From the sequence record MK524176.1: a DNA stretch of 64,000 nucleotides; one strand, written 5' to 3'. Shown one piece after another: positions 20,396-21,441 of this stretch. This DNA is from Escherichia phage PHB11. The first letter of the stretch is position 1. The number at the start of each line of letters is the position of its first letter. Made by a program: the position numbers and the translations under genes. A model generated the notes under the pieces. It saw nothing but the letters and a program-made list of their open reading frames with translations. It was not told where the DNA came from and searched no databases.

Positions 20396-20836
20396 TTAGA
20401 AAGGTTTTCTACGTTGCTTGTTAATGTTAGCTTTCATAGCAGCTAAGTGGTTTTGCTGTTCAATCAGTCGTGAGCGTTCTTGATGGCTAAGTTCCATAGT
20501 GTTCACATTCTCAATAGCTTGAGTGGCTTGCTTTAAAGCTCGACCAATCTTACCAGACATTTTACGTTTTGCAATAGTTGCTTGATGTTTAGGTTCAACC
20601 ACACGATAACCAACACCCATTGAAGCAACCAGATAAATCTTCTCTTCTTTAAGAAGCTTCTCAATAAACTTCTCAAGTCGGTTTAGACGTGTAAGTGCAT
20701 AAGCCTTCATTTCATCTTCGTACTTAACAATGTCGCCTTGATAAGTTGGCTTCACAATACCTAAGAAGGTGTCCATCTCAGAATGTGATACAGTGTCACC
20801 GTAACTAAACTTTGCTGCTAATGCTTTTGTATTCAT
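20396..20836 (-). CDS. Hypothetical protein (cassette gene 2)
   Basis: 146 aa ORF, basic C-terminus; flanked by the E1/E2 repeat elements. Confidence 0.4.
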   Translation of the reverse strand: MNTKALAAKFSYGDTVSHSEMDTFLGIVKPTYQGDIVKYEDEMKAYALTRLNRLEKFIEKLLKEEKIYLVASMGVGYRVVEPKHQATIAKRKMSGKIGRALKQATQAIENVNTMELSHQERSRLIEQQNHLAAMKANINKQRRKPF

Positions 20837-20838
20837 AA

Positions 20839-21441
20839 TTAAACGTTACCTTCTGAAATAACTTCTACAGAAAAACGACCAAAGCGTGGACGCCAATCAC
20901 CTACACCACAAAGGTTACCAGCATTTTCCAGAACCATCAGGAGTTCCTCTCGTGTGATTTGCTCTTCATCGAACATCAAACCGAACTCTACAGACCAGTC
21001 ACGGAAGATTGGACGGTAGCTCATAACTCGTGCTGTACCAATCTTAACAGACTTAGCATAGATAAAGTCTGGATTCTTAGCAAGTTCTTGTGGGTTTGCT
21101 GGACAGTTCTTGATAGTCATTGGGAAGACTACATCTGTCAGCATAATGGCTCGGTCAATTACCTTACCAAGTTTGTTGAGTTTTGCACCAGACTTGATGC
21201 AAGCCTCAATCATCTCACCGTTCATAACAAAACCTAGTTGCTCATCGTAGTAACAAGAAGTTACCAGTTGGCTTTCTGCTAAGAGCGCATAGTCTTCGTC
21301 AGTCTTTTTACGTTTACTGGACAGAGACTTGTGATATTTTGTCAGAGGATTTAACGGGTCTGACAACGTATCGTTATGGCTCAGGAAAGGACGAGTACCA
21401 GTGATTTTGATATTTAACAGTTTCATAGCATTTAGCTCCAC
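20839..21441 (-). CDS. Hypothetical protein (cassette gene 1)
   Basis: 200 aa ORF with GGAG SD upstream; flanked by the E1/E2 repeat elements. Confidence 0.4.

Follow-up and report, generated by a model that had tools for sequence, protein, structure and literature searches.

A probable type II VIPR system with four guide RNA genes in the Felix O1-like Escherichia phage PHB11

The locus between the DNA ligase gene and the thyA-side small genes of Escherichia phage PHB11 very probably constitutes a complete type II VIPR (Viral Interference Programmable Repeat) system. It occupies positions 20096-21849 on the minus strand of the window, which is the whole 64,000-nucleotide stretch of sequence record MK524176.1 that was analyzed. 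A single predicted promoter is followed by two guide RNA (vrRNA) genes, a and b, then by vipr and vap1, a terminator-like hairpin, and two further vrRNA genes, c and d (Table 1). The VIPR components at this locus are present and intact, and the complementarity between guides and targets follows the published rule of a one-nucleotide skip. The likely biological role is the silencing of a satellite that parasitizes the phage. Publications of 2026 cover the VIPR system together with its structure and targets, and the PHB11 locus, as a near-identical orthologue, opens no new question.

VIPR is described in two bioRxiv preprints of 2026 (10.64898/2026.04.26.720920 and 10.64898/2026.04.26.720927). 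Its parts are Vipr, a small RAMP-fold protein, an accessory gene termed vap, and vrRNAs composed of 9-16 YNNGG repeats and an invariant 3' tail, which forms a pseudoknot in the SUSP1 clade. Vipr polymerizes with one protomer per repeat, and the GGY bases are sequestered. The remaining NN dinucleotides base-pair with double-stranded DNA in a register that leaves out every third target base, which results in an R-loop triplex and a block to transcription. Most guides of the SUSP1 clade are aimed at an E. coli satellite phage, and co-expression of vap1 enhances protection. The experiments on SUSP1 comprise sRNA-seq, pull-down, GFP repression, plaque assays, and cryo-EM, while parasitism of the satellite on the phage was deduced in the preprints from shared tail genes (10.64898/2026.04.26.720920, 10.64898/2026.04.26.720927).

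Nucleotide similarity places the window among the Felix O1-like phages (Felixounavirus). A 2.6-kb segment surrounding the locus is 99.7% identical to Escherichia phage vB_EfeM_pEP20 and shares 91-96% identity with over 200 Felix O1-like phages of Escherichia, Salmonella, Shigella, and Citrobacter. The vipr and vap1 genes lie on the minus strand between an ATP-dependent DNA ligase gene (22959..21856) and a run of small genes toward dhfr and thyA. This is where the sequence-only reading had placed two open reading frames, 20839..21441 and 20396..20836, both of which exist on that strand. Elsewhere in the window, an HNH/AP2-type homing-endonuclease-like ORF of 171 amino acids (23639-24154, minus strand) lies directly downstream of an uninterrupted DNA polymerase gene of 909 amino acids (24151-26880). 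The annotations of pEP20 and BPS15S6 show the polymerase gene interrupted by one for an endonuclease, so the window is not collinear with its closest relative at this point.

Table 1. Features of the vipr locus in PHB11, listed in the order of the minus strand (positions are those of the window)
Feature	Position	Strand	Remarks
Putative sigma-70-type promoter, TTGACA-16 nt-TATACT	21822..21849	-	5' of the vrRNA a/b array and vipr; 11/12 consensus
Type-1 leader hairpin (~16-18 bp)	21755..21791	-	3' arm ends at first unit of vrRNA a
vrRNA a: 18 GGYNN units and tail A (GTAGTT-AGTCTC-AACTAC...GAGACT pseudoknot)	21627..21754	-	
Type-2 leader hairpin (~12 bp, AU/GU-rich) before vrRNA b	21592..21626	-	
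vrRNA b: 11 units and tail B (GTGG-ATGGTAGTAG-CCAC...CTACCA pseudoknot)	21500..21591	-	
vipr: 195-aa RAMP-type, vrRNA-binding, filament-forming protein (roles via SUSP1 orthologue)	20839..21426	-	PDB 36pp match
vap1: 146 aa, predicted winged-helix-like N-terminal domain and C-terminal helical hairpin	20396..20836	-	SUSP1 orthologue
Intrinsic-terminator-like hairpin, AGCCTC-TTCG-GAGGCT and T-run	20360..20384 (hairpin 20384-20369)	-	3' of vap1; overlaps next leader
Leader hairpin before vrRNA c	20332-20366	-	
vrRNA c: 12 units and tail A	20235..20331	-	
Type-1 leader hairpin before vrRNA d	20199..20234	-	
vrRNA d: 13 units and tail B' (AAGG-ATGGCAGTAG-CCTT...CTGCCA pseudoknot)	20096..20198	-	

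The first of the two proteins can be assigned through its structure-bearing orthologue. A PDB sequence search returns as its best chain 36pp_D, the "SUSP1 Vipr protein" (E = 1.7e-127, 98% identity over the full 195 amino acids). All of the residues published as RNA or DNA contacts, namely H17, K33, R39, E71, M72, K82, G87, K88, R138, C173, D177, W178, and R179, are conserved, and the residue given in the preprint as "T175" is a valine in the SUSP1 and PHB11 proteins alike. Judged by these matches, the protein appears to be the Vipr of a type II system, the minimal RAMP protein of the SUSP1 clade with an RRM core, a G-loop, and a thumb. The reading frame had been taken as 200 amino acids from a GTG at 21441. 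It is real, but its start is better placed at the ATG at 21426, which is preceded by a GGAG 8 nucleotides 5' and at which the public annotations and the PDB chain begin (MKLLN); the product is therefore 195 residues long. The statement that neither protein carries a recognizable motif holds for Pfam, NCBIfam, and PADLOC, whose profiles match neither Vipr nor Vap1, but not for the PDB. In PHROGs the two proteins fall only into families of unknown function, phrog_4652 and phrog_5926. Homology to core replication or structural proteins, which the sequence-only reading had named as the finding that would speak against an accessory role, was found for neither protein, and a replication or structural identity was rejected for both Vipr and Vap1.

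The second protein, Vap1, is identical at 145 of 146 residues to the product of the SUSP1 gene immediately 3' of vipr, which corresponds by sequence to the adjacent vap1 gene expected of a type II system. A word-indexed protein search finds near-identical proteins only, and an exhaustive HMMER search recovers 235 remote homologues. On one metagenomic contig (L035), a 36%-identical Vap1 directly follows a 44%-identical Vipr, ahead of GGY/NN repeats. The pairing of the two genes is thus old, since it persists at this level of divergence. The arrays downstream on that contig (1040-1400) consist mostly of GGC rather than GGT units, so that the same locus plan is seen in a distant relative. An AF2 model of Vap1, built with 60 relatives in the alignment, has a pLDDT of 96.1 and predicts an N-terminal domain of helix, helix, long helix, and beta hairpin, followed by a long helical hairpin. 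Foldseek matches to this model are weak (winged-helix E of at least 0.07) and mostly winged-helix DNA binders, including ScpB, histone H1, SaeR/AdeR, and MarR. The family motif SVRGxGYRIV presumably resembles the wing of OmpR/PhoB, for which the match to AdeR (E 0.43) offers weak support. These predictions suggest, at most, that Vap1 may bind DNA.

The promoter and terminator that had been proposed for the two genes are both found. The promoter sequence at 21849-21822 is the same base for base in SUSP1 and, ahead of orphan arrays, in relatives without vipr, although the number of promoters found by the scan is no higher than in shuffled sequence (10 vs 10.4). By analogy with SUSP1, this sequence would act as a promoter and transcription would start there. 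The terminator hairpin, earlier given as 20368-20390, is found at 20384-20369, and its sequence is identical in SUSP1, the scan count again lying within the shuffled expectation (1 vs 2.3). Since vrRNAs c and d lie downstream of this terminator-like hairpin, their transcription would need read-through or an unrecognized promoter.

The intergenic flanks of vipr and vap1 had been described as direct repeats of about 275 bp. The repeats are real, with 77% mean column identity when the two flanks are aligned, but they are not simple duplicates. They contain a four-copy family of 95 nucleotides and a 32-nucleotide block at 97% identity, and on the minus strand each flank resolves into two units, each composed of a leader hairpin, 11-18 GGYNN pentamers, and a conserved tail of about 37 nucleotides. 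Far from passively bracketing the two genes, the repeats are guide RNA genes and make up the half of the system that determines specificity. In the whole 64 kb, four tracts reach 9 or more periodic xGY units, and each of them lies at the vipr locus on the minus strand, while 50 shuffled sequences contain 0.02 on average. None of the GenBank records examined annotates a vrRNA, and an Rfam search of the region (E up to 1) returns no family except one chance sRNA match.

The guide code was quantified in 18 IMG/VR relatives, in which Vipr is 96-100% identical, together with the window, giving 19 loci and 83 vrRNAs, 67 of them unique. These loci carry 1-3 vrRNAs upstream and 1-3 downstream of vipr and vap1. 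Across the 67 unique guides, the entropy per unit position is 0.95 bits at G1, 0.16 at G2, and 0.50 at Y3 (which is always a pyrimidine), compared with 1.92 and 1.90 bits at N4 and N5. The arrays are thus tandem YNNGG units in which GGY is conserved and NN is hypervariable, as in type II VIPR. Positions other than G are found at G1 in 22% of 822 units, and G2 and Y3 are near-invariant. Phages in which Vipr is at least 96% identical differ freely in array length and in NN content. The sequence of guide d is identical in two of the relatives (L012 and L018). In vrRNA c the first position is T or A in 6 of its 12 units, and this vrRNA may bind Vipr less well.

The 3' tails are conserved in structure rather than in sequence alone. 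The 18 distinct tails align without gaps and share a 6-bp stem and a 6-bp pseudoknot, in which 93.5% of cells are paired, compared with 30-40% when the partners are slid. Compensatory changes on both sides occur in 10 of the 12 pairs, comprising all 6 pairs of the pseudoknot and 4 of the 6 stem pairs. This is the 3' hairpin and pseudoknot tail of type II VIPR, and both the guide code and the tail structure are under selection. Every vrRNA also has a conserved hairpin directly 5' of it. In nearly all relatives the type-1 leaders have folding energies of -13 to -21 kcal/mol, and their 3' arm stops exactly where the first repeat unit begins. Leader hairpins may be sites at which an RNase processes the array; on processing in type II systems the preprint text is silent. 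The leader, tail, and promoter sequences are the same as those of the SUSP1 vrRNAs detected by sRNA-seq.

The predicted targets of these guides lie in satellite elements integrated in E. coli. A BLAST search of E. coli genomes with the downstream array gave no match, so the satellites cannot be found by array similarity, and they were found instead through a phage baseplate-like gene. This gene, which follows the tape measure gene of the phage (6463-7260, plus strand, 265 amino acids, phrog_3721), has a chromosomal counterpart, annotated as "phage baseplate protein", in 474 of 5426 complete E. coli genomes, with DNA identity of up to 96-98% (the copy in satellite L003 spans 14977-15750). Such identity suggests that the phage and its presumed parasite have recently exchanged genes. 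The satellite family was found in 558 of the 5426 genomes (474-558, about 10%), as islands of about 10-14 kb at several sites, among them ymdF/wrbA, yciI/tonB, and yecN/yecD. E. coli strains E47, E203449, and CUPS04 are among the carriers. The islands encode serine recombinases, a Dam-type methyltransferase, small ORFs, a tape measure protein, and the baseplate protein, and their tail genes resemble those of PHB11 itself.

Each guide was written as (xNN)n and scanned against nine satellite islands, skips of 0-3 nucleotides being compared and 300 shuffles of unit order serving as background. Guide b matches a satellite tape measure gene at 19 of 22 NN positions (L004, 13250-13218), and guide c matches a satellite DNA adenine methyltransferase gene at 21 of 24 (L003, 7523-7488), reaching at least 20 of 24 in three satellites. 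Guide d matches a satellite ORF of 324 nucleotides at 20-21 of 26 positions in six of the nine satellites, with its predicted site in L007 at 10132-10170. For each of the three, none of the 300 shuffles does as well, and the match, at 81-88% of NN, is seen at a skip of 1 only, the skips of 0, 2, and 3 giving background. Units 1-9 of guide a match the satellite tape measure gene at 17 of 18 positions in L065 (13367-13393) and L066, while neither full-length guide a (compared with its shuffled background) nor its units 10-18 have a target in the nine satellites. For guides a, b, and c the skipped base coincides with the wobble position of the codon, and for guide d with codon position 2. The same pattern extends to relatives, in which 37 of 61 unique guides reach at least 80% of NN in five sampled satellites, and to SUSP1, whose vrRNA4 matches a satellite recombinase gene at 20 of 22. 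Within the 64-kb window itself the guides reach at most 64-68% of NN, short of the 80% threshold, and the guides do not target the phage's own DNA there. The guides are thus complementary to genes of competing mobile elements under the (xNN)n code with a one-nucleotide skip, as in type II VIPR. Since the nine satellites sampled are drawn from about 500, better targets probably exist.

Guide a is unusual in several respects. Its 18 units exceed the published range of 9-16, and of 50,697 phage records, only those of pEP20 and vB_EcoM_Shy contain this guide. Short stretches of units 10-18 recur in the guides of other phages and only units 1-9 match a satellite gene, so guide a looks like a recombinant of two guides.

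Some satellites carry guides of their own. Three of the nine have a vrRNA and no vipr (L007 7035-6986, L065 7039-6975, and L067 5919-5860, on the minus strand of these loci), and the tail of the satellite vrRNA is related to phage tail B (GGGTGGATTGTCGTAGCCAC...ATCGAC). The guide of the L065 satellite matches the host intergenic regions torZ-cmoB and rutG-ymdF at 21-23 of 26 NN in several genomes; these matches could reflect a repeated host element or the flanks of attachment sites.

The distribution of the system was followed in 29 related IMG/VR loci found through the ligase. Seventeen have vipr and vap1 with 3-5 vrRNAs, nine lack both genes and retain the promoter and a fused array of 1-2 vrRNAs (UAB_Phi87 and BPS15S6 are among the phages without vipr), and in three the ligase is followed directly by the next gene. 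The two genes are therefore always present or absent together, and are jointly missing in 12 of the 29. About 255 GenBank records carry this ligase at 80% identity or more and about 117 have Vipr, which is seen more often in Escherichia phages (76 of 119) than in Salmonella phages (17 of 81).

The orphan arrays form an unreported side finding, since neither these arrays nor the use of guides in trans are described in the text of the VIPR discovery preprint. They lie in the region between the ligase gene and a gene of 127 amino acids (L032 4760-5075, L033 4610-4935, L040, L043, L044, L057, and L061-L064). In nine of the 12 loci without vipr, the same promoter and 1-2 intact vrRNAs are found at the same position, and 5 of 13 unique orphan guides match E. 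coli satellites at 80% of NN or more. A fused array of one or two units in nine of these 12 loci is what recombination between the flanking arrays would be expected to leave. It is conceivable, although on balance doubtful, that the flanking arrays are also recombination substrates, which excise and re-insert vipr and vap1 and shuffle guides, the chimeric 18-unit guide a being one product, and that phages without vipr borrow Vipr in trans from a co-infecting phage or use their guides as decoys against the Vipr of a competitor. The text of the discovery preprint contains no such reading.

The locus had been viewed as an exchangeable accessory module, and the question is whether it could be a mobile moron of unknown function, whose direct repeats are passive and act as recombination sites only. 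The joint gain or loss of vipr and vap1 (both are absent from 12 of 29 loci, nine of which have a fused array) and their uneven distribution between Escherichia and Salmonella phages would fit such a moron. It is nevertheless very improbable, as the repeats follow a strict GGY/NN code and their tails covary at the RNA level, the same elements are Vipr-bound RNAs in SUSP1, the variable bases are complementary to satellite genes, and the function is known. What survives of the module idea is that the genes belong to a dispensable conflict module with its own promoter; they are not of unknown function, being vipr and vap1 of a VIPR system, and their repeats are guides. A role in host takeover or anti-defense, as was suggested, gives way to an RNA-guided silencer of a competing mobile element. 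Still further from the evidence is the idea that the periodic tracts act as DNA, in the form of protein-binding iterons, bent DNA, or an origin, or that they encode an 86-residue protein, with no guide RNAs involved. The 5-bp period does equal half a helical turn, and a mechanical ORF with a 5-residue repeat does run across the upstream array. However, compensatory changes preserve the hairpin and pseudoknot of one strand only, all four tracts lie on the transcribed strand, free variation in array length and NN among phages with near-identical Vipr would scramble any ORF, and the orthologous RNAs have been documented by published sRNA-seq and cryo-EM. This explanation deserves almost no credence. 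Iterons or an origin in the repeats were rejected, as was the 86-residue ORF itself (21456..21716, minus strand, with a VRCG-like 5-residue repeat), which is not a gene and is a by-product of the 5-nucleotide GGYNN periodicity.

A more serious question is whether the VIPR copy of PHB11 is decaying or partly inactive, with intact proteins and eroding guides. The T or A at G1 in half of the units of guide c could be read this way, since a near-identical guide in a relative (L024) has G at three of these six positions; so could the chimeric look of guide a, with its untargeted 3' half, and best target matches of 81-88% rather than 100%. Against this, positions other than G at G1 are common throughout the family while G2 and Y3 hold, both proteins are full length with their contact residues intact, guide d is identical in three loci, and better targets are probable among the satellites that lie outside the nine sampled. 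Decay is accordingly improbable, and an intact type II VIPR system is the preferred account of the locus.

The SUSP1 and PHB11 systems are alike in most respects. Vipr is 97-98% identical and Vap1 99% identical, both loci lie downstream of the DNA ligase gene, and they share the promoter, the terminator hairpin, the leader sequences, the tail types, a total of four vrRNAs, and guides aimed at the same E. coli satellite family. They differ in layout, with two vrRNAs upstream and two downstream in PHB11 compared to one and three in SUSP1, and in content, since all four PHB11 guide sequences differ from those of SUSP1 and one of them has 18 units and looks chimeric.

VIPR also bears comparison with Class 1 CRISPR-Cas effectors of the Cas7 type, in which, as the preprints point out, a RAMP-fold protein likewise polymerizes on a guide RNA and bases are flipped out periodically. 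In both, a variable guide is capped by a conserved structured handle and the target is a mobile element. VIPR, however, has no CRISPR array, no cas1/cas2, and no contiguous spacer, its specificity residing in non-contiguous NN dinucleotides with a one-nucleotide skip; it is encoded by a phage, and it represses its target rather than cleaving it. CRISPR-Cas itself was rejected for the PHB11 locus, as there are no CRISPR repeats or cas1/cas2 in or around it and PADLOC and Rfam give no matches. A phage-encoded weapon against satellites has a precedent in the CRISPR-Cas system that Vibrio phage ICP1 directs against PLE, where a lytic phage likewise carries RNA guides that match an integrated satellite exploiting it. 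The ICP1 system differs from VIPR in its proteins, its guide code, and its outcome, which is DNA cleavage instead of transcription silencing.

The mechanism has been established for the 97-98%-identical SUSP1 system and is extended to the PHB11 locus by orthology. On this basis, transcription from the promoter at 21849 would yield a precursor that matures to vrRNAs of about 90-130 nucleotides. One Vipr protomer would then bind each GGYNN unit to form a helical filament, capped by the 3' pseudoknot, with the GGY bases flipped into pockets of the protein. The NN bases would pair with double-stranded DNA that reads (xNN)n, one base being skipped per unit, to give an R-loop triplex. The bound complex would block transcription of the satellite gene, and Vap1, as a predicted DNA binder, would enhance the effect. 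For PHB11 we infer, in line with SUSP1, that the vrRNAs are expressed, that Vipr binds them, and that matching DNA is repressed.

The assignment has several consequences for Felix O1-like phages. Annotation can assign vipr, vap1, and four vrRNA genes to about 1.75 kb that now read as two hypothetical proteins and unannotated intergenic sequence. Specific satellite genes can be named for three and a half of the four PHB11 guides, which provides ready natural pairs of guide and target, and a guide set and array layout different from those of SUSP1 constitute independent data in support of the published anti-satellite role. Felixounaviruses are used as therapeutic and typing phages, and the presence of VIPR, together with the satellite content of the host, may affect their yield and host range.
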